From contig JAZLKX010000025.1 in NCBI GenBank assembly GCA_045597865.1, positions 128,001-192,000 of the forward strand: DNA of 64,000 bases. Reading direction: 5' to 3'. Each line of letters starts with the position of its first letter. Position 1 is the first letter of the stretch. Positions 2,350-24,356 of the stretch are shown in pieces. The notes beneath the pieces were generated by a model. The model was not told the DNA's origin and searched no databases. It saw only the letters and a program-made list of their open reading frames with translations. The DNA is from Bacilli bacterium. GTDB taxonomy: Bacteria; Bacillota_I; Bacilli_A; RFN20; CAG-826. The translations under genes and the position numbers were made by a program.

Positions 2350-4857
2350 TTATTTTTTAAATCCATCAAATCTGAATGCGACCATTGTGATGTCATCAAA
2401 TTGAGCTGCGCCATCAGCAAATTTAACGCATTCTTCATAGACATATTCACAGAGTTCTTTACAACTTCCAAACTCTTTGGCGTTAAGAATATTTTGAAGT
2501 CTTTCTTCACCGAGCTGTTCACCTGTTGTGTTAACGCCTTCAGTAACACCATCAGTGTAAAGGTAAACAATATCACCAACTTCTAATGTAAGTTTGTTAA
2601 TTCCATAAGGCATTCCATCCATTGCTGCGAGAACTAAATTGACAGGTGCTCTTAAGTATTCAAACTTGCCATTTTTGTGTTTGATAAGTGGTGGGTTGTG
2701 TCCGCCATTAGCAAATGTTAATTCACCATTTGTTAAGTCAACACTTGCAGACCATGCTGTAACAAACATGCCAGCTTCATTACCTTCACAAAGGGTATTG
2801 TTGCCTTGCATAAATGCATCGTTGATTGGAATGTTGGTTTGAGTAAGGGATTTAAGGATACTCTTTGCACGCATCATGAATAATGCAGCTGGAATTCCTT
2901 TACCTGAAACGTCAGCGATAGTGAAGTGGAAGTGTTCTTGATTTGAGAAATAGAAATCATAGAAGTCTCCACCAACTTCTTTTGCTGCGTGCATGGATGC
3001 GTAAATATCGAATTCTTTACGATCTGGGAATGCAGGGAATGTTGATGGAAGAACTGCTGTTTGAATGGCTTTAGCCATTGCAAGTTCTTCATCGATACGT
3101 TTATTTGCTGCATCAATGTAGCCTTTTAATGCGTCAACTGTTTCGTTAATGTCTTCTGCCAAGACTTTGAATTCAGTAACGTTACCGCCATCAAGAACTT
3201 CATCTAAGTCACCTGCAGTAATCTTAGCAAGTGATTCGTTAGTTTTTTCAATACGGTCAATGATAAGTTTCTTTATAAGAATGTATGTTGTAATGAAGAT
3301 ACAACCGAAGACAATAATTTCAAGGAATGTATTAACAAAGATTGAAATATTACGGCTAAGCATAGCTTCTTCAGATGGGAGTAAAGATAAAATGTAGTGT
3401 GTGTCTTCAAATTTATATTGGGCACAATATTCTGTACCAGCAATTTTGATATTGAAAGTTGTGTTGCTAGAATTGTTTTCGAAGGCACTTGATAAATCAG
3501 AAAAATCGTCTGGTAATTTAGAATCTTTTCCTTTGGAAATGGACTTAAAGTCACCATTTAAAACGAGAAGTTCGCCTGCATTACCAACTTTTTTAAAGCC
3601 AGCAATATTGCCAACAAGTGTATCGACACCAGCTTTATCATATCCAACTTGAATGTAACCAGCTTCTTTTGTTCCGCTACCGAAATCAAATTCAAATAAA
3701 ACACCAGCGTATTTTCTTAAGTTTTCTGGTTGAGTAACAGGAGCTCTGAATTCTTGGACATAATAACCTGGTCCATTTGGATCGATTATTTGATTATGGA
3801 ATTCTCTACTTTGATCAAAGTTATAGACTTTGCCGTCAGAGTCAATATAATTGTCTTCATTCATTTTGTAACCAACATTTAATCTGTCGTTTGCATAAAC
3901 AATGAATGCATCCGATTTTCTAATTAAGTTAATCTCAACAATGCCTTGATCTTGAGCGAATTTATTTAATAAATTGTTATAGTCATCACCAGGTTCGTAG
4001 TAAGCTTCAAGTCCGGGATTTCTATCTAAAACACCTTTGATTTCGTATGCTTTTTCAATTGTTTTATACGAAATTTCATTTGCAGTTTCTGTAATTGCAT
4101 AAGACAAATCATTGTCTAATTGCTTTTTAGACATTGTGTCGTTAAATAAAAAGACAAATGTTGATGAAAGCAAGAAGGAAACAATAGTTAATCCAGATAA
4201 AGTAACGATGAATTTTGAATTTAATGTTTTTAGGTCAGGCTTTCTGAAAGCTTTTTTGCCTTCATCAAGTGCTGCATAAACAATTAATGAAATTAAAACA
4301 GCTAAGCTGTTAGCAGTTAGCATTGGTGGTGTACATGCTTGAACAACAGCAAATGCTTTTTGATATTGAGCAGCATTTGTGACAAAGACCATTAATAAAT
4401 GGAATACTTCAATAACAAAGCCAGTAAAGAATCCAGATAAGAATCTTGGGCGCTTGTCATCAAATGCAAAATGTCTGACTATAGCAGCAATAATGCCTGC
4501 AAGGAATGTAGAAACTGAACAAGCGATTACTGTAAAACCGAATTTCGTTGGATTAACAAGACCAACAATCATTCTTTCAAGTCCGCCAATAGTACCAGCT
4601 ATAATTCCAGTTGGACCACCAAAGATTAAACCACCAATAATGACAGCAGCATCTCTTGCGTTTGCGGCTGCTCCACCAAATGGAATACTCCAGTGAGTTC
4701 CAACAATGGCAAGCCCACCAAAGACAACGCCATAAATGGCTTGTTTAACCCAATAAGGCAATTTGCTAAAACCTGTTTTGTTTAAAAAGAAAAAAATAAT
4801 TGCTGCAGCGACAGGTAATAAAGCTGCAATTGCTAAGAATAAATAACTAGTAAACAT
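2350..4857 (-). CDS. Membrane sensor PP2C/SpoIIE-family phosphatase (5TM-5TMR_LYT, extracellular sensor, HAMP, PP2C)
   Basis: N-terminal NARDAAVIIGGLIFGGPTG (LytS-type 5TM); HAMP; PP2C motifs EVGGDFYDF, IADVSGKGIPAALFM, YTDGVTE, QFDDITM. Start moved to ATG 4857, just downstream of a TATAAT. Confidence 0.85.
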   Translation of the reverse strand: MFTSYLFLAIAALLPVAAAIIFFFLNKTGFSKLPYWVKQAIYGVVFGGLAIVGTHWSIPFGGAAANARDAAVIIGGLIFGGPTGIIAGTIGGLERMIVGLVNPTKFGFTVIACSVSTFLAGIIAAIVRHFAFDDKRPRFLSGFFTGFVIEVFHLLMVFVTNAAQYQKAFAVVQACTPPMLTANSLAVLISLIVYAALDEGKKAFRKPDLKTLNSKFIVTLSGLTIVSFLLSSTFVFLFNDTMSKKQLDNDLSYAITETANEISYKTIEKAYEIKGVLDRNPGLEAYYEPGDDYNNLLNKFAQDQGIVEINLIRKSDAFIVYANDRLNVGYKMNEDNYIDSDGKVYNFDQSREFHNQIIDPNGPGYYVQEFRAPVTQPENLRKYAGVLFEFDFGSGTKEAGYIQVGYDKAGVDTLVGNIAGFKKVGNAGELLVLNGDFKSISKGKDSKLPDDFSDLSSAFENNSSNTTFNIKIAGTEYCAQYKFEDTHYILSLLPSEEAMLSRNISIFVNTFLEIIVFGCIFITTYILIKKLIIDRIEKTNESLAKITAGDLDEVLDGGNVTEFKVLAEDINETVDALKGYIDAANKRIDEELAMAKAIQTAVLPSTFPAFPDRKEFDIYASMHAAKEVGGDFYDFYFSNQEHFHFTIADVSGKGIPAALFMMRAKSILKSLTQTNIPINDAFMQGNNTLCEGNEAGMFVTAWSASVDLTNGELTFANGGHNPPLIKHKNGKFEYLRAPVNLVLAAMDGMPYGINKLTLEVGDIVYLYTDGVTEGVNTTGEQLGEERLQNILNAKEFGSCKELCEYVYEECVKFADGAAQFDDITMVAFRFDGFKK

Positions 4858-7750: not shown

Positions 7751-9691
7751 TTAGTTGTGTTCTTTTAAGAACTCGAGATATTCATCTTCTGTTAAACATT
7801 GTGCAAAGTAGTAGCCTTGAATAAATTCAAAGTCTAATTTCTTTGCGAATTCATATTGTTCTTTGGTCTCAACACCTTCAATAACAATTGGGTAATCAAG
7901 AGCCTTAAATAAGTTACGCATTGACTCCACAAAGAGTCTTGCTTTCTTGTTGTCTTCAAGAAGGGTTTTATCAAGTTTAATAATATTAAATGGTTGATTT
8001 AAGAGTTGATTAACATTTGAATAACCAGTTCCAAAATCATCAATAGCGAATCTAATTCCTTCTTTTCTAAGTGTGTTCATAAATTCTGAAATGTGTTCGG
8101 AATGCTTAACTGTTGCAGTCTCAGTAATTTCAAAACAAATCTTAGATGGATCAACTTTTGACTTTTTAATAATATCAACGAATTTCTTGGCTGGGTTTGT
8201 GAAGAATTCAGCACCTGAAACATTGATTTCCATCATATTTATTTCAGAATGTTTATTTAAAAATTCGCAAACTGTGCGTGTAACATATTCATCTAATAAA
8301 TTGGCAAGACCAGCTTTTTCTGCAAGCGGAACAAACTCTGCAGGAGGAATGTTCCCGAACTCTTCACAAGTGAAACGAAGCAAAGCTTCAGCATTATCAA
8401 ACTTACCGGTTCTATTGTTTAGAATTGGTTGATATCTCATTGAGAAACCAGAACAATCACCATTAAGTCTTTCAGCTAAAATCTTTTGGATTTTGATTTC
8501 TCTTGTAATCTTTTCTACGTGTGATGAATCAACATAAAGAAGTTCGTCTTTCTTGCTATTTAAAGTTTCAGAGAGGAGGTTTGCATAGTTTAAAAATTGG
8601 TTACAAGTTTCATTCTTTCCATTGTCGGTGAATTCAACAAGTTTACATGAGAGTTTAACTTCAACATTTTTAATTTCCCATGGTTTTTCAAATCTATGCT
8701 TGATTGCACCGATTGCATTCTCGGCATCACTTTTCTTCTTAAAAAGAAGAACAAACTTTGATGAGAAAACACGGAAAGCATAAATGTTCTTTTGGAGTGA
8801 ATTAAAGAAGGTTCCGACTTCTCCATAAAGTTCGTTTCCAGTGACGATACCAAGTGTTTCATTAATTTCTTCAATTCCTTTAACATCAATTGAGACAATA
8901 AAGTTTTCTCTTGCTTCTTTGGTTGTTTTTTCCATGTAAAGCATTAAAGCATTGAAGTTGAAAACGCCTGTGATTTTATCAACTAAGTCATCTGGATTTG
9001 AGATGTTATCTTCGATAAAGTAAAGAGCGAATGCAATTGTGATACCAGTAAGAAGAATGGTTGGATATGCAATTTGAATTCCGATGCCAATTAAAATAAC
9101 TGCGATTGAAATATAGATAGCAATAAGTTGTCTATTTTCGAGTTGTTTGTGTTTAATTCCAGCGAACACTGCGACAAGTAAAAAGTCAAAGATTGCAGTG
9201 CCGTAGTAACACAAGAATAATGGACCGTGTGTGTACATTAAGTTGCCTTCTGTATTTTCTGCAATATAGCAAACCCAATGTGTTGCAGGATCTACAAACA
9301 TAAGTAATGCAAAGACAAGACCTGGAATTAAGAATAAATATAAATATTTATTTCTGTAATACTTTGGACCAAGAATTGCAAGAAGATAAACAAACATTAA
9401 GCTTGGTAATGCGACTTGCAAAATATAGAATGCACGATTGAATAGTTCATTAATCCAAATCGGACATTGATACATATAAGTTTCAACAAGAACTGAAGCG
9501 GTGATATCAACTGCAATATCAACGATTGCAACAATAACGGCACCAATAAATAATTTGGTTAAGATTGTTGGGAAGCGTTTGTGATAAAAGTACTTAATTA
9601 AAAGAATGAATAGGAACAACAAAGCTCCAATTTCAAAAAAGTAGTTGTAACCAGGGACATTCCATCTGTCCACCAAATTTGCGAGTGTCAT
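7751..9691 (-). CDS. Membrane c-di-GMP phosphodiesterase (7TM sensor, degenerate GGDEF, EAL)
   Basis: About 7 TM N-terminus; GGDEF fold (DKITGVFN) with the motif replaced by FSSKF; EAL motifs YQP, AEALLR, EITE, IDDFGTGYS, IKLD, EGVET, QGYY. Confidence 0.88.
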   Translation of the reverse strand: MTLANLVDRWNVPGYNYFFEIGALLFLFILLIKYFYHKRFPTILTKLFIGAVIVAIVDIAVDITASVLVETYMYQCPIWINELFNRAFYILQVALPSLMFVYLLAILGPKYYRNKYLYLFLIPGLVFALLMFVDPATHWVCYIAENTEGNLMYTHGPLFLCYYGTAIFDFLLVAVFAGIKHKQLENRQLIAIYISIAVILIGIGIQIAYPTILLTGITIAFALYFIEDNISNPDDLVDKITGVFNFNALMLYMEKTTKEARENFIVSIDVKGIEEINETLGIVTGNELYGEVGTFFNSLQKNIYAFRVFSSKFVLLFKKKSDAENAIGAIKHRFEKPWEIKNVEVKLSCKLVEFTDNGKNETCNQFLNYANLLSETLNSKKDELLYVDSSHVEKITREIKIQKILAERLNGDCSGFSMRYQPILNNRTGKFDNAEALLRFTCEEFGNIPPAEFVPLAEKAGLANLLDEYVTRTVCEFLNKHSEINMMEINVSGAEFFTNPAKKFVDIIKKSKVDPSKICFEITETATVKHSEHISEFMNTLRKEGIRFAIDDFGTGYSNVNQLLNQPFNIIKLDKTLLEDNKKARLFVESMRNLFKALDYPIVIEGVETKEQYEFAKKLDFEFIQGYYFAQCLTEDEYLEFLKEHN

Positions 9692-9816
9692 AATAATCAC
9701 CTCTTGTTGATTTAATTGTAGTTTAAAACTATGTTTTTATAAACTAAATTTATGAAAATGAAATATTGAAAGACTTTGTCTTTCTAGTAATGTAAAAATT
9801 TACATTTTGTTTCATA

Positions 9817-9882
9817 TTGTAAGCGCTCGCATAAGCAATGTATAATATATGCGAACTTATGAGCGCGATTCGAAGGCGCTCA
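9817..9882 (+). promoter_or_regulatory. Sigma-A promoter overlapped by a cre/LacI-like operator, plus a 5' UTR hairpin
   Basis: TTGTAA (9817) -18- TATAAT (9841); TGTAAGCGCTCGCA (9818-9831) is one mismatch from TGWAARCGYTWNCA; hairpin TGAGCGC..GCGCTCA (9860-9882). Confidence 0.55.
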
Positions 9883-9897
9883 AGAAAGGAAATAAAA

Positions 9898-11169
9898 ATG
9901 AAAGGTAAAAAGATTCTTTCATTAGTTTCTCTCGCAATGGGTGTAGCCATTGTTGGAGGAACCTTTGCTGCTTGGGCTGTAACGGATAATGCAGATCCAT
10001 TTGGCATCAAAGTTTCGCCAGGATCAGTTGGTCCTGACACCACACAGTTTGTCACCTTATCATATGGTTCATCCACATTTGCTAATGTTGACAACCTCGA
10101 AGCTGGCGTTCCAAGAATTGCTGGTAGCGTTCTTTTAAAAGCCGACACTAACGATGGTACAGCTTTCCCTTATGCAGTGTTTGATATTGCTCTTCAAGAT
10201 CAATCAAACGGCAAGGAAGCCGGTGATGCAAAACTTGTTAACTTGTTAAATGTCGATGTCTACGATGTACAAGTTAAAGTTAATGCAAGTAACCAAGTTG
10301 TTGGCATGGATGACAATGCAGTTACTCCAATTGGACACATTCCAACTGAAGACGAAGAACTTGAAACAAGTATTGCAGTAACAATTCCTTCAGGAACAGG
10401 AAAAATGGTCTATGTTGTTGTCTCACTTGATGGTAATACAGACGCAAAAGTTCTTGAAGAAATTGCAAGTGATGTTGTTTATCTCCAAATGGATTTGAAC
10501 AAATCAGAAACAACACCAATCGCTTCAACATCAAAGATTTACTTTGCTTATGACTCTGGCAAGACAGTCAATGTTTATGCCTGGGGCGCAAAGAACAAGA
10601 ATGCTGATTGGCCAGGCGTTGCAATGCATGATGAAGGTAATGGCTATTACTCCTATGACTTAAAAGTTGACTTTGATCACGTCATCTTTACAGAACCAGG
10701 AGCAACAGAAGATGCTGATCCAGTTATGCAAACAGTCGACCTCGAAATTGGTGCTGACCAAAGAGGCGATACTCCTACATTCAAGCTCAATTTAGGTCCA
10801 GAAGAATCTGGCAAATGGGGTGGCTCATGGGCTGCTGCACCAGATCCAGAAATTGTTGTTGGCTACTATGTAGTTGGCGACAAGAAAGGCAACTGGAGTC
10901 CAGCAAAAGCTAACCTTATGACAGTCGAAGCAGGTAATGATAAACATTATTCTGTTGATTTAGCACTTGAAGCAGGCGAATTACTTAAGGTTACTAACCA
11001 AAACAAGACAGTTTGGTTTAGCTCAGTTTCAACCTGGGAAGATTGTGGATTCACAATCGATGCCTCAGGAAACATTGTTGTTACTACCGCAGGTAACTAC
11101 ACAGTCAATCTCTACACAGAAGGTGACGGTGGCAACTGCGTTACATTAACACCAAAAGCATCAGCTTAA
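9898..11169 (+). CDS. SipW-class signal-peptide surface protein with a CBM26-like starch-binding domain and a SusE/F-like C-terminal domain (candidate major fibre subunit)
   Basis: Signal ...IVGGTFA|AWAVTD resembles TasA/CalY GGTxAxF; VNVYAWG..NADWPGVAMHDEGNGYYSY..DHVIF (CBM26-like); YYVVGD..NWSP...ELLKV...GNYTVNL (SusE/F or X25-like); SD AAGGA. Confidence 0.7.
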   Translation: MKGKKILSLVSLAMGVAIVGGTFAAWAVTDNADPFGIKVSPGSVGPDTTQFVTLSYGSSTFANVDNLEAGVPRIAGSVLLKADTNDGTAFPYAVFDIALQDQSNGKEAGDAKLVNLLNVDVYDVQVKVNASNQVVGMDDNAVTPIGHIPTEDEELETSIAVTIPSGTGKMVYVVVSLDGNTDAKVLEEIASDVVYLQMDLNKSETTPIASTSKIYFAYDSGKTVNVYAWGAKNKNADWPGVAMHDEGNGYYSYDLKVDFDHVIFTEPGATEDADPVMQTVDLEIGADQRGDTPTFKLNLGPEESGKWGGSWAAAPDPEIVVGYYVVGDKKGNWSPAKANLMTVEAGNDKHYSVDLALEAGELLKVTNQNKTVWFSSVSTWEDCGFTIDASGNIVVTTAGNYTVNLYTEGDGGNCVTLTPKASA

Positions 11170-11182
11170 TTGCTTAAACTTT

Positions 11183-11207
11183 AGGGAGGGGATTTCCCCT
11201 CCCTTTT
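11183..11207 (+). terminator. Intra-operon hairpin/terminator after the first SipW substrate
   Basis: AGGGAGGGG-ATTT-CCCCTCCCTTTT, 10 nt before the next ATG. Confidence 0.7.
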
Positions 11208-11216
11208 CCCGTTATT

Positions 11217-12557
11217 ATGTCAATAAAGAATAAACAAAAGGTTAAAAAGATTTTAGATATTGCAGCTTTCGTTGCGTTCTTTTTGTTTTTCGTTTGTTCT
11301 TTACTTTGTTTAATTGCCAGATTTAATGGTGCAAGATTTTCACTTTTTGGAAATAGATATGATGTTGTTCTAACAAATTCAATGGCTGAAAAGAATCCAG
11401 AATATGCTGAATTTTTAAAAGATGATAACAATCAAATGAAAGCTTTTGATCTTGTTATTTCTAAAGAACTTCCTGCTCCAGAAGAAATTAAGGCTCATGA
11501 TGTTGTTATTTATACAGATAGATATGTTGGCACAAACATGCACAGAGTTGTTGATGTTGATATGAGCTACTATGAAAGAGTTGAATTTAATAATGCATCT
11601 CAAACTGAAATAAATGGTAAAACAGCAATTACTTTGAATGATGTTGCTTCTGGAATTACTACAAACGATATTAGTTTTAAGACTATGTCTTTCACTACAT
11701 ATTCCACTTTAGAAAATACTGACAATTTCAACATTTTCTCAGTTTCTCAACTTTACACACCAGAAATTACAAGAATTGAAGCTGAAAATGGTGGTTATTT
11801 TACTACTTATAAAATTTCAAAAAATACTGAAGCTCCTGGAGTTTTAAAAATTTCTCACAAAGCAATTTACGATTATTCTGCTGAGTTTATTACTGAACTC
11901 CATATTGATTCAAAAGCAGGCGCAATTGATGTAAGCATGATTGATTTACTTCCTTCAAATGAAGATTCTAATAATTTATTAGCAACATTTAATAAGCAAT
12001 TCATTTATGAGATTCGTGGTGATGCTTCCAATACATCAGATGGTTGGTATTCATATAATGAATTACAATCAATCGTTGTGAAAAACATGCCTGGTATGGG
12101 TTACCCAATTAGATTTATGGGTTCCATCTGGGGTGGCTTAATGTTTGGCCTATTAGGCTTATTGATTATTGTTGCAGACATTTTAATGAACAGACTTGAT
12201 AAAAAAGAAGCAGCTGAGACTGCAAAATCAACTACTGTTGATAATTCCAAAGAATTGAAAGAAGAATCTACTGAACAGCCTAAAGTTGATGAGCCTAAAG
12301 AAAACACTCAATCAGTAGAACAACCAAAAATTGAAGAATCAAAAGCTGAAGTAAAAGAAGAAAAACCAGCTGAAGAAAAACCAGCTGCCGAAAAGAAAGT
12401 TCCAGCAAAAAAGACTCCTGCTAAAAAAGCTAATGGACAATTTGCTTCTAAGGAAAGTTCAAAAGCTCCAGTAAAAAGCTCTAAAAATAGTTCTAGATGG
12501 ACAAAGGAAAATAATCCAACAGTAAATAAAAAACGTGCTGAAGGAGGGCAAAAATAA
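11217..12557 (+). CDS. sipW: SipW-type (S26B) signal peptidase I with an ~145-aa insertion and a charged C-terminal tail
   Basis: N-terminal TM; VVLTNSM (Ser55), DLVI, IKAHDVVIY, MHRVV (His109), IRGDASNTSD (res ~266-275), PGMGY, then a second TM; flanked by SipW-type substrates. Confidence 0.75.
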   Translation: MSIKNKQKVKKILDIAAFVAFFLFFVCSLLCLIARFNGARFSLFGNRYDVVLTNSMAEKNPEYAEFLKDDNNQMKAFDLVISKELPAPEEIKAHDVVIYTDRYVGTNMHRVVDVDMSYYERVEFNNASQTEINGKTAITLNDVASGITTNDISFKTMSFTTYSTLENTDNFNIFSVSQLYTPEITRIEAENGGYFTTYKISKNTEAPGVLKISHKAIYDYSAEFITELHIDSKAGAIDVSMIDLLPSNEDSNNLLATFNKQFIYEIRGDASNTSDGWYSYNELQSIVVKNMPGMGYPIRFMGSIWGGLMFGLLGLLIIVADILMNRLDKKEAAETAKSTTVDNSKELKEESTEQPKVDEPKENTQSVEQPKIEESKAEVKEEKPAEEKPAAEKKVPAKKTPAKKANGQFASKESSKAPVKSSKNSSRWTKENNPTVNKKRAEGGQK

Positions 12558-13495
12558 TGAGAAAAAGAATAGCTTTAATGTTAGTTTCTTCTGGCATTAT
12601 TTTTGCTAGTGCTTTTGGCGCTACTTCTGCAAGCTGGGCGGTTACTGATAATGCTGATGCGTTTGGTGTAAAAATTGGAATTAATGTCCCTACTATAAAA
12701 CATACAATTACTTATTACATTCCTGATATTTCGGATCAAACATTTAAAAATTACACAAGTGCTTCAATCTCTGTTGATGAAGGCACAAATTTGTATACCG
12801 CATTGAACGATTATACTGGTGAAGTTAATGGTTTTAACTTTGTTAATTGGCATGAATCTGCTCAACATTTAAGAACTGATGATACAACTCAAGACATTGT
12901 AGCAGACACTGCAACTGTTACTGGAGACATTACAGTTTACGGTAAATTTGTTAAATCTAATACTTTCTATTATTACGACACAACGCATCACTATGTAACT
13001 TCAACAACAAATGATGTAACAATTTCAACAAAAACCGCTTATGTGGGTGATTACATTTATTCTCTTGATGGTGTTGAAGGACATTCTAGAGATTTAATTA
13101 CTGATTCCGGTATTTATAAGCTCGAAAAAACTACTGATAATTGGAATATCTTAAGAAAGGTTTCTTTTGGGATTGATTCCGTTAGTTCTTGGTGGACAGG
13201 TAGTGGCGCCCATACTCATATATACTATGAAAATACTTCAGGTGCAGGTGCATTTAAAACGGAAGTAGCATTTAGCGGTAATAAAGCTACTTACTACTTT
13301 AATTATGATGTTAATAAGTTTGTTGTTTGTAGATCTCCATCAAGTTCTACAGATTGGAATCAATTTTGGAATCAAACAATTGATACAACTTTAAAAACAC
13401 AAAGTACCGGAAGTACTACATATAATAAAGAACACATAACTTTATACGTCCAAGATAGCAAAACAGATAATAAACAAAATATTAACTGGTGGTAA
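12557..13495 (+). CDS. Second SipW-class substrate (candidate minor or tip subunit) with a B-repeat-like domain and a Trp-rich carbohydrate-binding-like C-terminus
   Basis: Signal ...FGATSA|SWAVTDNADAFGVKI, nearly identical to the 9898 protein; GFNFVNW..VTGDITVYGKF; SWW..AHTHIYY..FVVCR..DWNQFWNQTID; TAATG overlap with sipW. Confidence 0.65.
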   Translation: MRKRIALMLVSSGIIFASAFGATSASWAVTDNADAFGVKIGINVPTIKHTITYYIPDISDQTFKNYTSASISVDEGTNLYTALNDYTGEVNGFNFVNWHESAQHLRTDDTTQDIVADTATVTGDITVYGKFVKSNTFYYYDTTHHYVTSTTNDVTISTKTAYVGDYIYSLDGVEGHSRDLITDSGIYKLEKTTDNWNILRKVSFGIDSVSSWWTGSGAHTHIYYENTSGAGAFKTEVAFSGNKATYYFNYDVNKFVVCRSPSSSTDWNQFWNQTIDTTLKTQSTGSTTYNKEHITLYVQDSKTDNKQNINWW

Positions 13496-14941: not shown

Positions 14942-14973
14942 AATTATTTTTTATGCGAAAGGAGGAAATTTGT

Positions 14974-16977
14974 ATGAAAAATAAGTTAATGGGCTTATTT
15001 GCTCTAGCATCATGCGTGATGCTTGCAGGTTGTGGCGAAAATCCAGGTCCTGGTCCAGATCCAGAACATCAACATTCCTTCTCAACTGAATGGAAATCTG
15101 ATGATTCAAAACACTGGCATGAATGTTCATGTGGTGAAAAAGCTGATGAAGCAGACCACGTAGACGAGGACAACAATGGAAAATGTGACGCTTGTGAACA
15201 CAGTGTCCCAAAGAAAGATCCTTTAATTGAAATCAAAGATTTACCAACTGATTTAGTTAATGGTGACGAAATTGATTTAGCAAATTACATCACAGTTAAA
15301 TATGGAAAAACTTCTTCATATTCAATTAACTTTGATGATGAATCATTTTCAATGATTACTCAATTAACTGATACAAAAATTAGAGTTGATCAATCTGGAA
15401 CAATTAAATTTACAGTTGATTATTCAGGAAAATCTCAAGAAGCTTCTCTTGTTGTCGGTTCTAAATTGGTCAAGGATTTTGTTACTGCAGTTAAAAATGC
15501 AGGATATGACTATGCCGAAATTTACCAAGATGACTATGATGACTATCACTGGGAAAACTATGGTGAAAAATTTATTATTGATAGCTTTTACACCGATGAA
15601 CCAGCTTATGGTTACTTGGAAGCTCCAGATGAGAAAGTATATTCTTATGAGTTAGATGATGAAGGTAATTTTACTTTTAGCATTACCGGAAATGAACCAG
15701 AATTTATTTCCGATTATTCAAAACCATTAGATCTTCCTCTCAGCGGATACGAAGTTTGTGTTGAAGGAACAGGTTCAAAGGCATTTGAATACTTAAGATT
15801 GGATGAAAATGATGAAGGAATTGTTAGAAATATTCTTCTTAATTTCTACAATATTAGTGAAGAATCACTCGATGCAGTATTAACTGAATACAATTTATCT
15901 ATTTCATCTTTCCAAGTAATTCCAGATGTCTTAGAAATTGAAGAAGGTGTTGAAATGGCAATTTACGACACATATGCATTTGTTATAGACAACGATCCAG
16001 AAAGTCAATACTTTGGTCAAGAACTTTGGCTTTCTAATACATGGCTTTCATTTGATTCCGATTTCTTCTTTAGAGATGAAGTTCAAGCTTATATTGATAG
16101 CGGTGAACAACCAACAAGTGCATTTGCTCTTGATGTCAAAGACATTGCAGCAGCAATTAATAAACACAATTATACAATTACATATGATTATGGTTGGTAT
16201 GATTGTTCAGTCAGTCCTGATGGAATGAGCTTAATTCGTGGTGAAAAACGCGATGATAACCCATTTGTTGATGGTTCTACAACTGGATATTACATTCACG
16301 ATTACTACAACGCTATTGGTAGTTTCAACGTTTACGTTGGAGAAGACAAAACATTCTCTGATGTTCCACATGAAAATGGTTATGGATTAATTAACCATGA
16401 TGTTGGTGAAGGCGTCTATGAAGGCTATGAATATAACGGAAATTCTACCGATGGTTATAAAGCATCAAAAGAATCAACTGGTTTTGATTTATATGATGAA
16501 GAAAACGACTTTTTGTATTACAACTATCAATTCTTAACTGGTGCCGAAATTGGTGAATGGCCATCAGTTTATGAAAGCTTATTTATCAACAATAAAGTTG
16601 ATAATGGAGATGGCAGCTTTACATTTGAATTAGGTGGTGCCTCAGCATTTGATCTCTTTGATTGCTTATTCTTAGAATCAGTTAACGATGGTGCTTATCC
16701 ACAAGGTGAAGAAGGAGAAAATCCTTCATTTGCATTATTCAACAGTTTAAATATTGTTGCTGAGTTTATTCTTGAACAAGGAATGGATATCTATTTTGAC
16801 TTAGAAATTACTGAGAAATATAGTGGTGAAGATCTCATTGGACTTACCTTTGATTTCTTCTGGTTTGACGCTCCTGAAGATTATTCTGAATATTATCAAT
16901 ATGTTATGAGCGCAGACATTGATTTCACACAATGTGATATGCCAGTATTTGATGTCAATTTCCCAGTCGCTGCATAA
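14974..16977 (+). CDS. Acidic lipoprotein with an N-terminal His/Cys module
   Basis: Lipobox LAGC; PGPGPDP linker; HQHSFSTEW..HWHECSCG..HVD..GKCDAC; SD AGGAGG. Confidence 0.8.
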   Translation: MKNKLMGLFALASCVMLAGCGENPGPGPDPEHQHSFSTEWKSDDSKHWHECSCGEKADEADHVDEDNNGKCDACEHSVPKKDPLIEIKDLPTDLVNGDEIDLANYITVKYGKTSSYSINFDDESFSMITQLTDTKIRVDQSGTIKFTVDYSGKSQEASLVVGSKLVKDFVTAVKNAGYDYAEIYQDDYDDYHWENYGEKFIIDSFYTDEPAYGYLEAPDEKVYSYELDDEGNFTFSITGNEPEFISDYSKPLDLPLSGYEVCVEGTGSKAFEYLRLDENDEGIVRNILLNFYNISEESLDAVLTEYNLSISSFQVIPDVLEIEEGVEMAIYDTYAFVIDNDPESQYFGQELWLSNTWLSFDSDFFFRDEVQAYIDSGEQPTSAFALDVKDIAAAINKHNYTITYDYGWYDCSVSPDGMSLIRGEKRDDNPFVDGSTTGYYIHDYYNAIGSFNVYVGEDKTFSDVPHENGYGLINHDVGEGVYEGYEYNGNSTDGYKASKESTGFDLYDEENDFLYYNYQFLTGAEIGEWPSVYESLFINNKVDNGDGSFTFELGGASAFDLFDCLFLESVNDGAYPQGEEGENPSFALFNSLNIVAEFILEQGMDIYFDLEITEKYSGEDLIGLTFDFFWFDAPEDYSEYYQYVMSADIDFTQCDMPVFDVNFPVAA

Positions 16978-17151: not shown

Positions 17152-20100
17152 ATGCTAAAAGTTGGATTACTCTGCGGTGTAATTGCAGCCATGTCAGCAA
17201 CCGGTGTCAAAGCCAGTCTTGATGCTAGAGTTGAATCAAAGCCTTGCGATGCTAGATTCATTGTTGAACTCAAGGAAGACATCGAGAATTTAACTGCTGA
17301 TGAAGCAATCAAACAACAAGATTCTGTCATTAGAAAAATTAAAAGACAGATCAACTCAAACGTTGTCAAAGATCGTAACTTCACAATCTTAAATAACGCA
17401 TTTGTCATTAAAGCAAATAAGAGTGACAAAGAAGCAATCTTAGATATTCCAGGTGTTAAAGAGGTCACAGAAGATGGCCAACACGTTGTAAAACATACTG
17501 AAGGTTCTAATGGATTTACAATCTCAGTAAATGGTTCAGGAGATGGAGGATCAACAATTGATCTTTCACAAAACGCTTCTTCCATTACAATGAAAAAACC
17601 TGATAATACTAATGATGGTGAAGGTACATTAATTGCAGTCTTAGATAACGAATTCTATTTAAGAGCTGAACACAAAGAAAATGGTGTTACAGTACCATCC
17701 TATAGTCATGTGACATTCACTGACTTAGATAAAAGTGTTCATACTCGTATCCCTAACTTCACACAAATGAAGAAAAGGGCTGCTAATACTTATGCAATCA
17801 AAAAACAAATTAGTACTGCAGACCTTGGAGAAGAAGGATCCTTATACTTCAATAGAAAGGTTCCATTCTACTATGACTATGCTGGTGATTCCTACACAGG
17901 TTCATCAAGCGGTGCAGTAGAGGACTTCGATGTCGAATCAAAGATTGATTTACACGGTTCACACGTTGCATCTATTGCAGCAGGTAATGACCCAGATTAT
18001 AAAGGTATCGCTCCAAAGGCTCAGCTTGCATTAATGAAAGTCTTCACTGACGTTCATTCAACTCCAGCAAGTGATGCAGCAGGAAACGGAAAATACGGTT
18101 CATTCTCTGAAATTGGATTCATCACAGCTCTCGAAGATGCTATTGCATTAAAGGTTGACGCAATCAACGTATCAATTGGTAGTGACTTAGCAGACTTCGA
18201 ACAAGGTTCTATTTCTCAAAGAACACTTGATAAAATTGCAAAAGCCGGAATTCTTAGTGCAATTTCCGCTGGTAACGGTGGTAAATCATCCTATGCATTT
18301 ACAGGCGGTTACGCAAACTGGACACAGGATATGGTTGAAACAGGTGTCATGGGATCATTTGCAAATAATGCTTCCACAATGACAATCGCATCTGGACAAC
18401 CAGAGTGGACATTCTACGAAAACTCATTAAGAATCGGTGATCAAGTTGTTCCATATGAAGACCAAATCGTTAATCGTGATGGTGAAGCTGAGGATTATAC
18501 CGAAGAACACAGAATGCAACAACTCATTACTGAGAGCATTGATCCAGATTTAGAACCAACTCCAGAACAACAATTAAAAGAGATTGGTTACGTTTACGTA
18601 AAAGGATTTGGTGAAAAGAAAGACTACGATAAGAAAGACCTTTCTAATAAGGTTGCAATCGTAAACCGTGGTAAAACTTCTTTCGCTGAGAAATATGCTG
18701 CAGCAGAAGAAGCTGGCGCATCAGCCCTTCTTATCATCAATAACGACCCAACAGAAAACGACTTCACATTCAGATGTGACTTCGGTGATGAAAAAGGTTC
18801 AATTAATAAACCAGTTGCTCTTGTCTTATTTAAAGACAAACCATTCTTCGAGGCAAATCCTGAAGGCAAGTTCATGGTTAAGAAAAACACATCAAGTGTT
18901 AACAAACTCGCTAATACAATCAGTGATTTCTCAACTGAAGGTGCAACATATGATCTTGATTTAAAACCAGAAATCACAACACCAGGTTCAAATATTAAAG
19001 GTGCTGTCTGGCCACAAAACAAGAAAGAAAAATTACCAGAAAACAAATTTAAGTCATATGAGTACTTCAACGGTACATCAATGGCTGCACCAAACTACGA
19101 AGGTGCAATGGCAGTTGTTCTTTCCAAGGTCACTAAAGATTTAGTTGCAGATAACAGAGTTACTGACGAGGAAGAACAAGCAATTCTCGATTATAGAAAA
19201 ACTATTAATATGAGAATGATGTCAACAGCAATTCCAATGCATGACTACGAGAAAAATCAAGAAGATAATCAAAACACTCTCACTTCTCCACGTATGCAAG
19301 GTGCTGGTATGGTCAACCTCGACGGCGCATATAATACCGAAGTTTATGTAAAAGGTTCTGATACAAATAGACCAGACGAAGAACTTGATACATCTAAGAT
19401 CTTACTTAGAAACTCTGAAGGAATTGCCAAAGGCAATATCAAACTTAACTTCACAGTTGTTAATGAATCAAGCTCAGAAAAGTCATTTGCAATTAAATAT
19501 AACGTTATGAGACCAGCATTAGCTAAGTCTAATAAGGTCTTAACTGATGACTACGCTGCTCCAATTGAAGTAAGCGATGTTAGAAACTTTACTGGATGGG
19601 AATATTATGCTCCAGAAGAACATAAGGTTGTCGTCGCAGACGGTAAAGCAAACTACAAAGATGTCTTCAAAGTTGCAAAAGATATTGAATACTACGCAAC
19701 AGAAGCAGCTTACCTTGCAGAAACACCAGATGGTGTTATCAAAGAAGGCTTATACTACTGTGCTGATGAAAATCCTCAAGAAGGACAAAAAGTCAATTGG
19801 CAAATTTGTCCAGATTATGACTATCAATCAGTTAAGGATGTTCAAATTGCAGAAGTAAATGGACCAACAATTACTGTTCCAGCAAACGGTTCACTTAAAG
19901 TTTCACTTGATGAATTTGCAATCCCAGAAGATGCAAAGGCAAAAATTGAAGAATTATATGCAACTGGAACATTCATTGAAGGTTTCGTCTCATTAAAGGC
20001 TCAAGGAAGTTATCCAGACTTATCAGTCCCATATATGGGATTCTACTCATTAACTGATAAACACGCTGATTATGATTACTCAACTCCAGAAGTTGTAGAA

Positions 20101-21297
20101 CCATTCGAATTTGAAAAAGATTCTCACAAAATCTATGGTTCAGACTTAATCAACGATGTTGCAAAATCTCTTCTTGGTAAAGATAACGTCGAATACGGTT
20201 CACTTATGATGGCAGGTTATGCTAAGAACATCAAAAACATCAATACTGATAAGATTCTTACAAATGATTTGTCATTCAAGCAACTTGATGGATTCTACCC
20301 AGTTGGTACAGCTCCAACCGAAAATAAATCCATTAACAACTACACTGAAATGCCAAGCAACGACATTTATGTCGGTAACCCACTTAAATCAAATACTCTC
20401 ATCATTCAACAATTTGTTATGAGATCTGTAGCAGACAACTACTACACAATCACAAACAAAGCTACAGGTGAAGAAGTTTACCGTAATGCATTAACAGATA
20501 TGTTATTCGGTACAACAATGGGCAAAGCAAACCTTTATAAATCCCACGTTGATGCTGATTACCTTGGTGCAGGTTATGTTGCTCATAGAGCTGTCTCAAT
20601 TGCTCCACTTTATAACCCAGAAACAAAAGTTCCATTTGCTTCAGGTGATTATGAACTCAAGTTCAACTATCAACTCGCAGGAACAGGTAAATGGGTAAGC
20701 AAAGCTTACACACTTCATATTGATGCTGAAAGCCCACTTGTATCATCAATTGTCGACTTTAAAGAAGGCGGTGTTGATAAAGTTCGTATTACATTTAAGG
20801 ATACGCGCTGCGCATACGCACTTGTTGGCTCAAATAAAGTTGAAGTTAAGTATGACGAAAAACAAAAAGTTTATTACGCTGATGTAAACAAAGCTATTGT
20901 TGATTCAGCAATTAATAAAAATGCTACTGAATTCTCAAGCTCAAGACTTATTATCAGAGCTTACGACTATGCTCGTGGAGAAACAGTTGCAATTGTCCAC
21001 TTTAGTGGAAATGACTATTCTCACTACACCTTAGCACAAGGACAAGGCTTCTCAACAAATGCCGACTTCACATATGAAAACGATGTCTTAAAGATTTACG
21101 AATTTAATGAAGATGGCACAAAAGTAGAAGTTACAAACGTAAATGGATTTAATTACGTTAGTGGTGATGTCGAAAAACAAAACGACACAGCCTTAATCCT
21201 TGGCTTATCTATCGGAGGCGGTGTGCTTGTCCTCGGTGGAATAGGTGTTGGTATATTCTTCTTATTAAAGAAGAAAAAAATTATTGGAGGTAAATAA
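17152..21297 (+). CDS. Cell-envelope S8 subtilase (lactocepin/C5a-peptidase-like): propeptide, S8 with PA insert, C-terminal membrane anchor
   Basis: Triad IAVLDNE, HGSHVASIAAG, GTSMAAP; SAGNGG; PA domain (VAIVNRG..FAEK..AGA); KPEITTPG; QGAGMVN; C-terminal TM plus KKKK. Confidence 0.92.
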   Translation: MLKVGLLCGVIAAMSATGVKASLDARVESKPCDARFIVELKEDIENLTADEAIKQQDSVIRKIKRQINSNVVKDRNFTILNNAFVIKANKSDKEAILDIPGVKEVTEDGQHVVKHTEGSNGFTISVNGSGDGGSTIDLSQNASSITMKKPDNTNDGEGTLIAVLDNEFYLRAEHKENGVTVPSYSHVTFTDLDKSVHTRIPNFTQMKKRAANTYAIKKQISTADLGEEGSLYFNRKVPFYYDYAGDSYTGSSSGAVEDFDVESKIDLHGSHVASIAAGNDPDYKGIAPKAQLALMKVFTDVHSTPASDAAGNGKYGSFSEIGFITALEDAIALKVDAINVSIGSDLADFEQGSISQRTLDKIAKAGILSAISAGNGGKSSYAFTGGYANWTQDMVETGVMGSFANNASTMTIASGQPEWTFYENSLRIGDQVVPYEDQIVNRDGEAEDYTEEHRMQQLITESIDPDLEPTPEQQLKEIGYVYVKGFGEKKDYDKKDLSNKVAIVNRGKTSFAEKYAAAEEAGASALLIINNDPTENDFTFRCDFGDEKGSINKPVALVLFKDKPFFEANPEGKFMVKKNTSSVNKLANTISDFSTEGATYDLDLKPEITTPGSNIKGAVWPQNKKEKLPENKFKSYEYFNGTSMAAPNYEGAMAVVLSKVTKDLVADNRVTDEEEQAILDYRKTINMRMMSTAIPMHDYEKNQEDNQNTLTSPRMQGAGMVNLDGAYNTEVYVKGSDTNRPDEELDTSKILLRNSEGIAKGNIKLNFTVVNESSSEKSFAIKYNVMRPALAKSNKVLTDDYAAPIEVSDVRNFTGWEYYAPEEHKVVVADGKANYKDVFKVAKDIEYYATEAAYLAETPDGVIKEGLYYCADENPQEGQKVNWQICPDYDYQSVKDVQIAEVNGPTITVPANGSLKVSLDEFAIPEDAKAKIEELYATGTFIEGFVSLKAQGSYPDLSVPYMGFYSLTDKHADYDYSTPEVVEPFEFEKDSHKIYGSDLINDVAKSLLGKDNVEYGSLMMAGYAKNIKNINTDKILTNDLSFKQLDGFYPVGTAPTENKSINNYTEMPSNDIYVGNPLKSNTLIIQQFVMRSVADNYYTITNKATGEEVYRNALTDMLFGTTMGKANLYKSHVDADYLGAGYVAHRAVSIAPLYNPETKVPFASGDYELKFNYQLAGTGKWVSKAYTLHIDAESPLVSSIVDFKEGGVDKVRITFKDTRCAYALVGSNKVEVKYDEKQKVYYADVNKAIVDSAINKNATEFSSSRLIIRAYDYARGETVAIVHFSGNDYSHYTLAQGQGFSTNADFTYENDVLKIYEFNEDGTKVEVTNVNGFNYVSGDVEKQNDTALILGLSIGGGVLVLGGIGVGIFFLLKKKKIIGGK

Positions 21298-21299
21298 AA

Positions 21300-24200: not shown

Positions 24201-24356
24201 GCTCAACGTTTCACACCAGAACAACAAGCAGAACATCCAGAATACAAGACTCCATTTAACACTGGTAAATATGGTGTCTATTACGAATTCGAAATTTATT
24301 ATTCAATTAAAATTGAAGATACATTTAGCGAAAACTTTGTTACTGTTAGCATGTAA
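21300..24356 (+). CDS. oppA: OppA-like (SBP family 5) lipoprotein with an N-terminal Ig-like domain
   Basis: Lipobox LAGC; SSNPSVASVDENTGAV (Big_2-like); PVTIDDY, SCGPFTL..W, FDRN, FYSIDR, GQFDLGFG; 1018 aa; upstream of oppBCDF. Confidence 0.7.
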   Translation: MKKGKLLKTSIVLALAGVGAASCLAGCGKEDPKAEVAFAFSIGLRSGKNEFRVGQTDQIVVYDNGGKDSANRSYKYYSSNPSVASVDENTGAVSFNSPGNDVSFYVKESKVSNPAQLVKPVNVIANNVGNADGGFNFASASGDAAIAKRTEILGKLEKYTMDSHLTGITLFDNGGLVRYSDRVVLPTGGKYVTGYGFGLLTEGSLDPSKPLTGTDGQKNKDYLHSAIAQDSLKINQYTATGSQVSDLASYITSTYWGTKLKGLGYEWTPVLAADEVYPVSVAADGSVSLDKSKKVPNSEPIPMEPENDLKMYKKWRIYVKTDGDVNGSVLKFHQKVVSGDSVVAGPLDNVPVTIDDYIFPYKMLLTGSNAVIRGTEMANDSSYGIKGAARYFSDTKSELNIDKINEKWNTAVSGNKLGIHSGSDENGAYLDIELINAIDSFTAMYTLSSSLVSPLPQKMFIGADAVVPNDFKKSATYYGTFNNGANNDILKYTVSCGPFTLSKWEKNQQIVFDRNDDWFEYKKPDGTLTGRYNIPGIYYRVIDVSQNPEKTWDQFEEGNLDSVGVPIKKVAEWKGKPGIYETEGDSTFKLNVNSCTQEQWNEKFGPNGSISANSNWDIKPWMSNANFLDGLFYSIDRKQFADKRGVKPSINYFSDSYMADPQKGISYNSTQAHKDAVKGYETIDENGISDYGYDFDKALSCFRNAVKQLSDANKIALGTKENPTEIHIHIRWMYQTDIKEYGEDIKFYFEKAFNDDAVCGGKVKLVVDQDAVTNWEDVYNEWMMKGQFDLGFGAISGNTFNPLNFMEVLKSDNSSSFTLNWGADTGKIDPLHPIVYDDGKGAKEWSFDGLWEVADHGGILSKGVKVEPVKSARVDIDCFTRGGEMIENGDLYSGAFDLSLPIEFVKFGSGDSDIFDINRVDAYIVGKGNTTLGEKSEGTLTYDKANKKIIIHVSDQMAKDINDDIISAQRFTPEQQAEHPEYKTPFNTGKYGVYYEFEIYYSIKIEDTFSENFVTVSM

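Follow-up and report, generated by a model that had tools for sequence, protein, structure and literature searches.

What could be served by one short N-terminal segment common to two secreted proteins that are otherwise unlike, and by a signal peptidase encoded between them? The question is raised by a locus in a 64,000-nucleotide stretch of the genome of a Bacilli bacterium (GenBank assembly GCA_045597865.1, contig JAZLKX010000025.1, positions 128,001 to 192,000 of the forward strand), here called the window, to which coordinates refer unless another locus or contig is named. Gene A (9898-11169, 423 residues), a gene for a divergent SipW-type (S26B-like) signal peptidase (11217-12557, 446 residues) and gene B (12557-13495, 312 residues) lie there head to tail in one orientation, on the plus strand, and the stop codon of the peptidase gene overlaps the start codon of B as TAATG; the order substrate, signal peptidase, substrate given in a preliminary description of this DNA is borne out by the three open reading frames. 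The answer which we favour, and consider probable on evidence that is computational throughout, is that the locus encodes a starch-binding fibre whose subunits are joined by donated beta-strands, with B as the terminal subunit.

The common N-terminal segment and its predicted acceptor

A and B are alike over residues 1-40 only (20 of 40 identical, E 1e-7), with nothing else significant between them, just as the preliminary description had them diverge behind a nearly identical segment following the cleavage sites. The common segments are WAVTDNADPFGIKV and WAVTDNADAFGVKI, and the motif W[AS][VIL]TD[NDS] has exactly two occurrences in the 1.74-Mb host genome translated in all six frames, one in A and one in B. 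The signal peptide of A (residues 1-24; 9898..9969, plus strand), with a hydrophobic segment at residues 5-28, ends in ...VGGTFA and is predicted to be cut after Ala24 in the manner of SipW substrates; that of B (residues 1-25; 12557..12631, plus strand), hydrophobic at residues 4-25, ends in ...FGATSA and is presumably cut after Ala25, the predicted sites being GGTFA↓A and GATSA↓S. Directly behind them lie the predicted donor strand of A, AWAVTDNADPFGIKV... (residues 25-49; 9970..10044, plus strand), which has Trp at mature position 2 and is proposed from conservation and structure models, and the donor-strand-like segment of B, SWAVTDNADAFGVKIG (residues 26-41; 12632..12679, plus strand), recognized by comparison of A with B and by a profile match; the two strands differ at P34A, I37V and V39I.

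Conservation of this region was assessed in an alignment of 76 rows, made up of A itself and 75 of 114 hits, the other 39, mostly of 29-33% identity, having been dropped by hand. Within the family, conservation peaks at residues 19-35 (VGxTFAAWAVTDNADPF; 80-100%), with G20, T22, A24, D30 and A32 invariant and V19 and F23 at 95% or above, and W26, A27, V28, T29, D30, N31, A32, P34 and F35 of the donor strand reach 92-100%; in the signal peptide of B, G21 and A25 are invariant among 13 sequences. As judged from the alignment, a region on both sides of a normal signal-peptide cleavage site would not be expected to be so conserved. A and B were searched for LPXTG-like motifs, for a Cys of the lipobox type within the signal peptide and for a second hydrophobic segment, and none was found, which agrees with the earlier statement that neither substrate has a lipobox, an LPXTG motif or a transmembrane anchor. 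Nor was a sortase gene (PF04203) found in the host genome, a 1.74-Mb draft of 35% G+C and 96.9% completeness, and independence of the putative fibre from sortase, also claimed before, stands on both grounds.

The AlphaFold2 model of the A monomer, with a mean predicted local distance difference test (pLDDT) of 85 overall, comprises three confident domains, D1, D2 and D3, preceded by disordered residues 1-48, the donor segment having a pLDDT <50. D1 (residues 50-206; 10045..10515, plus strand) is a beta-sandwich (pLDDT 83-95) without a Pfam match and is the predicted acceptor of the strand. When three copies of A(25-210) were subjected to complex prediction with the 76-row alignment, a score of 0.70 was obtained (runs 0.72, 0.69 and 0.70), as compared to 0.22, 0.00 and 0.00 for the controls; at least 91% of the contacts were common to the runs, with partner pLDDT of at least 84, and the calibration of the score (mark attained by 20 of 30 solved pairs and by 1 of 23 single chains) is a rough one for a case of three copies and an alignment of our own. 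The predicted trimer is an open head-to-tail chain, residues 25-49 of copy 1 lying on copy 3 and residues 25-49 of copy 3 on copy 2. Copy 1 contributes almost exclusively these residues, which contact positions 49-68, 102, 113, 175 and 189-202 of copy 3, and the N-terminal strand lies between or beside strands 52-61 and 194-202 of its partner. The conserved positions of D1 (V52, T53, L54, G57, L113, L117, V175, L177, I189, D192, V194, D199 and W200) fall on this predicted strand-binding surface; for camelysins, conserved residues likewise coincide with the strand-binding surface, according to Roske et al. (PMC10151520). The trimer supports strand exchange between copies of A, short of showing it, and the insertion that a multimer model had been expected to reveal is indeed predicted, at 0.70 against 0.22 for the best control.

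The fold of D1 may point in the same direction. A search independent of Foldseek returned mostly subunits of donor-strand fibres, namely the CanA cannula (9h8b; Z 7.2, root-mean-square deviation (rmsd) 4.9, 129 residues aligned), the "Hyper2 tube" entry 9bac (Z 7.2), an archaic Csu pilin (Z 7.1), the TasA fibre (8aur; Z 6.8, rmsd 4.5, 138 aligned), AbpA (7ueg; Z 6.4, rmsd 5.0, 127 aligned) and the pilin domains of PapG, FimH and CfaE (Z 6.0-6.5); the best single match was to the N-terminal carbohydrate-binding domains of sialidases (Z 7.8). Foldseek placed the TasA fibre 8aur third (probability 1.00, E 2.5e-4). As far as the model goes, D1 is compatible with a TasA-like protomer, which is not proof of one. 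At the level of sequence, PF12389 (TasA/camelysin, Peptidase_M73) was not matched by the 76 A homologues at E<=1, among the 25 of 50 families listed, nor by 110 D1 representatives at E<=1e-4, and TasA was not among the matches of the A profile in the PDB.

Starch-binding modules and the second substrate

Behind D1, A carries two further domains, both pointing to starch. D2 (residues 210-316; 10525..10845, plus strand) is a starch-binding carbohydrate-binding module (CBM) of family CBM26 by Pfam and by fold: PF16738 matches residues 222-268 with E 2.1e-10 and 41 bits (cut-off 28.1), the CBM26 of Ruminococcus bromii Sas6 (7uwu) is matched with Z 9.8 (rmsd 2.9, 90 aligned) and that of Bacillus halodurans with Z 9.2-9.3, and the A profile also matches R. 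bromii Amy16 (6.6e-21) and Sas6 (1.1e-10). A is the only protein of the host genome with a CBM26. D3 (residues 321-421; 10858..11160, plus strand) has the fold of a SusE/SusF-like (X25-like) starch-binding domain, its closest matches being SusF (4fe9; Z 10.9, rmsd 2.7, 98 aligned), SusE (Z 9.1), the pullulanase 2wan (Z 9.1) and the X25-2 domain of Sca5 (Z 8.4). The CBM26-like domain claimed for A in the preliminary description is hereby secured; of the SusE/F-like domain claimed beside it the fold holds, but the Pfam family SusF_SusE (PF16411) is matched over residues 325-413 below threshold only (E 0.0029, 18.4 bits, cut-off 27.5). Judged by its model, D3 works like a SusE/F (X25) domain, its membership of that family by sequence not being established. 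Neither dockerin nor cohesin was returned by Pfam at E<=1 for A, B or the peptidase.

The model of B, built from 13 sequences, is of moderate quality (pLDDT 68 overall). Residues 47-135 (12695..12961, plus strand; pLDDT 72-93) adopt the beta-grasp fold of an InlB B-repeat (Flg_new or Listeria-Bacteroides repeat), with 70 of 72 residues aligned to 2y5p (Z 7.9, rmsd 2.0), and the corresponding family PF09479 is matched by B-like homologues. Residues 199-312 (13151..13492, plus strand) form a Trp-rich beta-sandwich of low-to-moderate model confidence (pLDDT ~65-85), whose resemblance to the alpha-glucan-binding CBM41 2j71 (Z 6.0) and to SpuA (Z 5.7) is weak. Of the earlier statement that B ends in a Trp-rich, CBM-like domain, the first half is confirmed by the 7 Trp in the last 120 residues, and the second is to be read as weakly CBM-like; assignment as a confident CBM was rejected, the matches reaching just Z 5.7-6.5 on a moderate model.

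What B lacks is D1: the D1 profile matches it over profile positions 3-47 only. Going by this match, B can only donate a strand and not accept one, and it is, therefore, no repeating subunit but at most a cap or an initiator, as TapA is for TasA. Docking of its strand into A may be expected from the near-identity of the two donor strands. The co-assembly of A and B by donor-strand complementation proposed in the preliminary description is, accordingly, to be narrowed: insertion of A into A is predicted, but a part for B as repeating subunit has to be given up.

The D1 family, the peptidase and rival explanations

If the segment were a donor strand, relatives might be expected to reuse it as a separable part, and this is what their domain arrangements suggest. 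The order A-like gene, peptidase gene, donor-only gene is kept in 12 of 13 related loci, the exception (in genome G102) reading A, peptidase, A; two further loci (L014 and L015), cut at contig ends, were left out of this count, and both are among the 4 loci retrieved by a metagenome scan with the A alignment. Related records carry the names of uncultured Bacilli, Coprobacillus and Erysipelotrichaceae, with rumen and gut as origin. Within the order to which the host belongs, a SipW-like match (E<=1e-10) is found in 168 of 401 genomes, and D1 in 11 of the 401, spread over 8 of 70 genera, with none among the 21 other genomes of the host genus; on this evidence the cluster is patchily distributed and may have been horizontally acquired. 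In all 11 genomes that have it, the D1 gene lies on the same contig as a SipW-like gene and at most ~1.5 kb from it, and the linkage of homologues to sipW, on which the preliminary description had staked its reading, is borne out to the last genome.

D1 is represented by 162 proteins at E<=1e-3 among 1.84 billion (142 at E<=1e-10; 12-sequence profile). Of 150 representatives listed, 110 were scanned for domains, proteins known from the A search and most fragments below ~190 residues being left out (two fragments, of 211 and 169 residues, are still in the scan). CBM26 was present in 83 of the 110, and in 3 of them (P0226, P0248 and P0262) it was joined by a GH13 alpha-amylase catalytic domain. 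The combination of a signal peptide, donor strand, D1, CBM26 and GH13, seen in these three and in the product of 2466-4745 of locus L012 (759-863 residues), would make such proteins enzyme-bearing shaft subunits.

Donor and acceptor are also found apart. Donor-only proteins, which match the profile at positions 1-~50 only, occur in 5 genomes, and the cargo of the B-like proteins varies, comprising B-repeats, CBM26 and a tyrosine-phosphatase-like domain. The last belongs to a B-like protein of 700 residues with the donor strand only (locus L002, 6947-9049), which ends in Y_phosphatase3 (E 2e-24) and is unexpected for the tip of a starch-related fibre; by translations of its open reading frames, the L002 cluster has a maltose-type ABC transporter and a GH13-like lipoprotein as neighbours. 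Conversely, 8 of the 150 representatives listed are acceptor-only, D1 being placed at the C-terminus of a protein without donor strand, behind a lipobox (5) or an N-terminal hydrophobic anchor (3) and accompanied by Big_2 repeats or linkers rich in Ser and Gln; retained in them are the motifs of the interface, ..TLxWG.., ..LIDYLxVxVY.. and ..DW... Two such lipoproteins, with Big_2 repeats or a Ser/Gln-rich linker, are encoded inside clusters, one after B (L060 928-1935, genome G243) and one, on the minus strand, before A (L061 1510-2388, genome G369), and are candidate membrane anchors or terminators. As the parts are separable into donor-only, donor-plus-acceptor and acceptor-only proteins, the family fits donor-strand complementation and not a mere peptidase-recognition tag; it also suggests a polarity in which an acceptor-only anchor is followed by a shaft of A and a distal tip of B. 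By search with the D1 profile, an acceptor-only D1 protein was not found in the host genome. The sole other match to the profile there, on contig C18 (E 0.11), is a cytoplasmic protein that looks spurious. Two other candidates for a D1-type anchor, a neighbouring lipoprotein of 674 residues and an insertion in the peptidase (see below), were rejected, as comparison with the D1 profile by hhalign shows nothing beyond signal peptides.

The peptidase itself is an outlier. Pfam returns nothing for it, and the NCBIfam model for SipW, NF046067, gives 18.7 bits against a cut-off of 190. Its family numbers 28 proteins among 5.8 billion, all of which keep Ser55-Met56, His109-Arg110, Arg267-Gly268-Asp269 and Asp275, and Lys is invariant at no position; the Ser/His and GD..D boxes we take to be those of S26B peptidases (Sec11/SipW, of the endoplasmic reticulum- and archaeal type). 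The SipW model NF046067 is matched by all 28 members at E<=0.1 (best 3.6e-9), and TIGR02228 (archaeal-type signal peptidase I) by 10 of them, in each case below the cut-off. Short relatives score better on the SipW model, as exemplified by a protein of 222 residues in locus L001 (E 1e-10). Hydropathy places transmembrane helices at residues 8-39 and 300-328, and from the basic N-terminus both probably flank an extracytoplasmic catalytic domain. When the family was compared by hhalign with a conventional SipW-like protein also encoded by the host, the GD..D box and the transmembrane helix behind it were aligned, but weakly (probability 2.3%, E 0.02). The assignment as a signal peptidase is drawn from the motifs and the family-wide weak SipW matches, and the protein is best filed as a divergent relative of S26B type, neither SipW itself nor its equivalog, for which cleavage of the neighbouring gene products is predicted; of the SipW/S26B peptidase seen in the middle gene earlier, the catalytic Ser, His and Asp residues are kept but the score of the hidden Markov model is far below the cut-offs. 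Attempts to match the peptidase to solved structures, with the single sequence or with the 28-sequence profile, gave low-complexity matches of the tail only and no peptidase.

Two parts of this enzyme stand out. An insertion of ~150 residues (~115-262; 11559-12002), extracellular by the predicted topology, separates the catalytic His from the GD box. Of the 28 aligned members, 27 have it, P0028 being the one without, and it is absent from the short forms as well; the long, insertion-bearing form was seen in 5 of the 401 genomes of the order, among the matches listed, a further 109 matches standing outside that list. Pfam, PDB-profile and ESM Atlas searches (the last with residues 112-265; best score 0.80) gave no lead as to its nature, and no similarity to D1 emerged when the peptidase family was compared with the D1 profile by hhalign. 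Behind the second helix follows a K/E/P-rich tail of 118 residues (329-446; 12201-12554), predicted to be cytoplasmic, whose end motif NGRFVSK ... SRWTKENNP ... KKRAEGGQK is conserved in many family members, including the short-form P0028, and occurs once in the host genome.

These findings have to be weighed against a plainer explanation: A and B might be ordinary monomeric starch-binding proteins, secreted or on the surface, with the N-terminal segment as a peptidase-recognition (P') element or sorting tag, D1 as a spacer or a further carbohydrate-binding sandwich, and no fibre. Much that speaks for it weighs at the same time against the fibre. The fold matches of D1 to fibre proteins all have Z <8, a range common for unrelated beta-sandwiches, and the sialidase domains, at Z 7.8 the best single match, are their equal; by PF12389 and the PDB profile, D1 is not a member of the TasA/camelysin family at the level of sequence. 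The trimer score is the model's own confidence and may echo solved TasA or pilus fibres, the task having been unlike the calibration, and complex predictors can pass on likeness alone. Also, no acceptor-only anchor was detected in the host genome by the profile search. Further to the debit of the fibre, and independent of its rival, are the four GH13 matches which share the contig with the cluster and do not adjoin it (16-20 kb and 64-70 kb off), the distance of the peptidase from curated cut-offs, with no clear match by PDB profile or hhalign, and the one housekeeping S26A peptidase which the genome also encodes and which could do the cleavage. A recognition tag, however, does not explain the acceptor-only D1 lipoproteins, which by their lipobox take another processing route and nevertheless keep the interface motifs and occur in the same clusters; nor does it explain why the conserved residues of D1 coincide with the predicted strand-binding surface, or the gap between 0.70 for the trimer and 0.22, 0.00 and 0.00 for the controls. 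We consider monomeric proteins rather unlikely on balance.

Acceptor-only lipoproteins are readily accommodated by a second alternative, in which single A and B molecules are held by their donor strands on a membrane-bound acceptor, resulting in a non-covalent display of starch-binding cargo comparable to that by cohesin and dockerin and in no long homopolymer; the acceptor would be the D1 lipoprotein in relatives and perhaps the 150-residue insertion of the peptidase here. That acceptor-only lipoproteins and transmembrane proteins exist (8 of 150 listed, two of them in clusters), that B-like proteins consist of a strand and variable cargo (CBM26, Y_phosphatase3, B-repeats) and that the long-form peptidase has an unexplained extracellular insertion would fit. 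But A holds both strand and acceptor and is modelled as a chain from A to A to A, the insertion has no profile similarity to D1, and an acceptor-only gene is found in just 2 of the 11 genomes, which makes single docking improbable. That the polymer is locked after strand exchange by intermolecular isopeptide bonds with Asp30 or Asn31 as one partner, as in BsaA, for which PMC11580942 describes a bond of donor-strand Asn35 with Lys74 of the acceptor and Glu56, is very improbable in spite of an invariant D30 and a 93% conserved N31, since no Lys or Glu of D1 is conserved above ~70% (K112 0.68, K169 0.63, K202 0.62), a triad is not evident, and the acidic TDNAD with D192 and D199 would fit an AbpX-like Ca2+ site equally well, as we infer from 10.64898/2026.01.04.697558.

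Assembly of the preferred fibre might proceed as follows. A, the major shaft subunit, would be exported by the Sec system and cut after Ala24 by the dedicated SipW-type peptidase; cleavage would free the AWAVTDNADPFGIKV segment, which would enter the open D1 sandwich of the adjoining A as a beta-strand, and the result would be a head-to-tail polymer in which every subunit displays a CBM26 and a SusE/F-like module, and starch granules or glycogen could be bound with high avidity. B would occupy the single groove left free at a fibre end, as a cap, tip or TapA-like initiator, and bring in its B-repeat and CBM-like domain. An excess of A over B might be maintained by a hairpin behind gene A, located at 11184..11208 (plus strand) between A and the peptidase gene, and by translational coupling of the peptidase gene and B. 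The hairpin is terminator-like, with a 9-bp G+C-rich stem followed by a run of T, a kind of site found 12 times in the region with 2.7 expected, and may be an attenuator by which the ratio of A to peptidase and B would be kept high. One possibility for attachment in this organism is offered by the published model for BsaA, in which the still uncleaved signal peptide retains the newest subunit in the membrane up to its cleavage by SipW (PMC11580942); retention of this kind could explain attachment without a separate anchor.

A more elaborate scheme can be put forward tentatively, that of a polar "fibre amylosome" built as the mirror image of chaperone-usher pili, with B as start, A as shaft, the peptidase as gate and a lipoprotein as terminator. 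Here donor-only B, with exchangeable cargo (CBM-like, CBM26, tyrosine-phosphatase-like), would start the fibre and become its distal tip, each A of the shaft would add two starch-binding modules and, in some relatives, a GH13 amylase as well, the peptidase would gate each addition by freeing the next donor strand, and an acceptor-only lipoprotein would end growth and tie the fibre to the membrane. In the present genome, where such an anchor was not detected, the insertion and tail of the peptidase, or the last uncleaved signal peptide, might act as platform and anchor.

Related fibres and the genomic surroundings

By analogy, the system would work like the fibres of TasA/TapA/SipW and BsaA/SipW and those of archaeal AbpA, AbpX, CanA and Tafi. 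The tapA-sipW-tasA locus of Bacillus subtilis has in common with it a dedicated S26B-type peptidase gene, placed between two substrate genes whose products have the same N-terminal donor segment, and a major subunit that (here by prediction) polymerizes via its N-terminal strand into the next beta-sandwich. TapA, described in PMC10151520 as donating its N-terminus to TasA, resembles B as a second protein with a donor strand and no role as repeating unit, and an overlap of stop and start codons between peptidase and substrate genes is found in both loci, for tapA and sipW in Bacillus (same source) and for the peptidase gene and B here. The differences are considerable: D1 has no detectable sequence similarity to TasA or camelysin, two starch-binding modules follow the fibre domain of each subunit, the peptidase bears an insertion of ~150 residues and a long, conserved tail predicted to be cytoplasmic, the gene for the major subunit comes first, followed by those for the peptidase and the minor subunit, and the role proposed is capture of substrate and not scaffolding of a biofilm. 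The sipW-bsaA-bsaB-bsaC locus of Clostridium perfringens likewise encodes a SipW-linked polymer formed by donor-strand exchange (for BsaA according to PMC11580942; predicted here), but BsaA has an Asn-Lys isopeptide bond and a catalytic Glu, of which no conserved triad is seen in D1, and is without CBM cargo.

[quoted passage not shown] In contrast to A, these are matrix or bundling fibres without enzyme or CBM cargo. The closest functional counterparts are the R. bromii amylosome with Sas6 and Sas20 and SusE/SusF of Bacteroides, where non-catalytic surface proteins with CBM26 and X25/SusE-F domains hold starch; whereas those depend on cohesin and dockerin or on lipoproteins, A and B contain none of these and would attain multivalency by polymerization. 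Chaperone-usher pili (Fim, Pap, Csu, CFA/I) are polar fibres with donor-only and acceptor-only ends, too, and the pilins match D1 with Z 6.0-7.1; no chaperone, usher or outer membrane is involved here, however, and the polarity appears inverted, the acceptor-only protein being membrane-anchored and the donor-only one distal.

Full-text searches, from which papers available by subscription only were absent, returned no description of a SipW/TasA-type fibre with starch-binding cargo. New in the putative fibre are the starch-binding modules on every subunit, with an amylase on some relatives; the exclusive tie of the family to starch; an architecture of three kinds of donor and acceptor parts, lipoprotein anchors included; and the insertion and tail of the peptidase. 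Gram-positive gut bacteria are known to hold starch by cohesin-dockerin amylosomes, sortase-anchored proteins and lipoproteins. Should the reading as a fibre be true, a self-polymerizing, TasA-type starch fibre would be a fourth and very economical route of multivalent capture, suited to sortase-less Bacilli of rumen and hindgut with small genomes, and would add nutrient acquisition to matrix scaffolding among the roles of the TasA superfamily. Moreover, the natural donor-only, donor-plus-acceptor and acceptor-only parts make polarity and termination of the fibre testable, and a modular, chaperone-free scaffold for enzyme display would be on offer.

Homologues of A start with MKGKK or MKKK, and an AGGA-type ribosome-binding site (~9888-9891, plus strand) precedes the ATG at 9898, which is the true start of the gene. 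Further upstream lies a promoter-like site, TTGTAA-18-TATAAT (9817..9846, plus strand), a mere consensus match of a kind seen 15 times in the region with 18.4 expected. The G+C content of the cluster (9898-13495; 0.367) is slightly above that of its flanks. Contigs of an RNA library, X13, a horse-gut metatranscriptome, cover 9898-11151 in six pieces, five of which have 4-17 differing letters and the sixth 1, as well as 12646-12795 and 13063-13262, and contigs of a second library, X20, cover parts of A. None lies on 11174-12245, the body of the peptidase gene, a gap that by itself counts as no finding; as such contigs can stem from DNA, no claim as to expression or stoichiometry is drawn from them. 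Run shares are all 0.36 or below, and nothing is claimed of the habitat beyond the labels of four runs.

Directly upstream of A, a membrane protein with GGDEF and EAL domains (Pfam) is encoded divergently (7751-9700, minus strand). The genome has two more SipW-like loci (L005 and L006, contig C16 1-15700), whose more conventional peptidases reach 91.5 and 69 bits with NF046067 and adjoin proteins with "...AWFS/AWFG..." N-termini, one of 1074 residues, with a repeat protein of 1313 residues beside them; the substrates there are of a different class from A and B. Genes of EAL/GGDEF type, recognized by their motifs, flank these loci as well (contig C16 4424-6715, 16616-18577 and 18588-19688), which hints at control of all three fibre systems of the genome by cyclic di-GMP. 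Downstream of B, the 674-residue lipoprotein mentioned above (14953-16977, plus strand), without a Pfam match, has a His/Cys-rich "...H-W-H-E-C..." segment in common with a lipoprotein encoded at 2750-4465 of locus L001, and such lipoproteins adjoin the fibre cluster both here and in that related metagenome-assembled genome. The region 17152-24356 encodes an S8 subtilase of 1381 residues with I9, PA and Fn3-like domains and, from its translation, a hydrophobic stretch near the C-terminus, followed by a Big_2-bearing family-5 solute-binding protein of 1018 residues and an Opp-type ABC transporter; it looks like a unit for surface proteolysis and peptide uptake.

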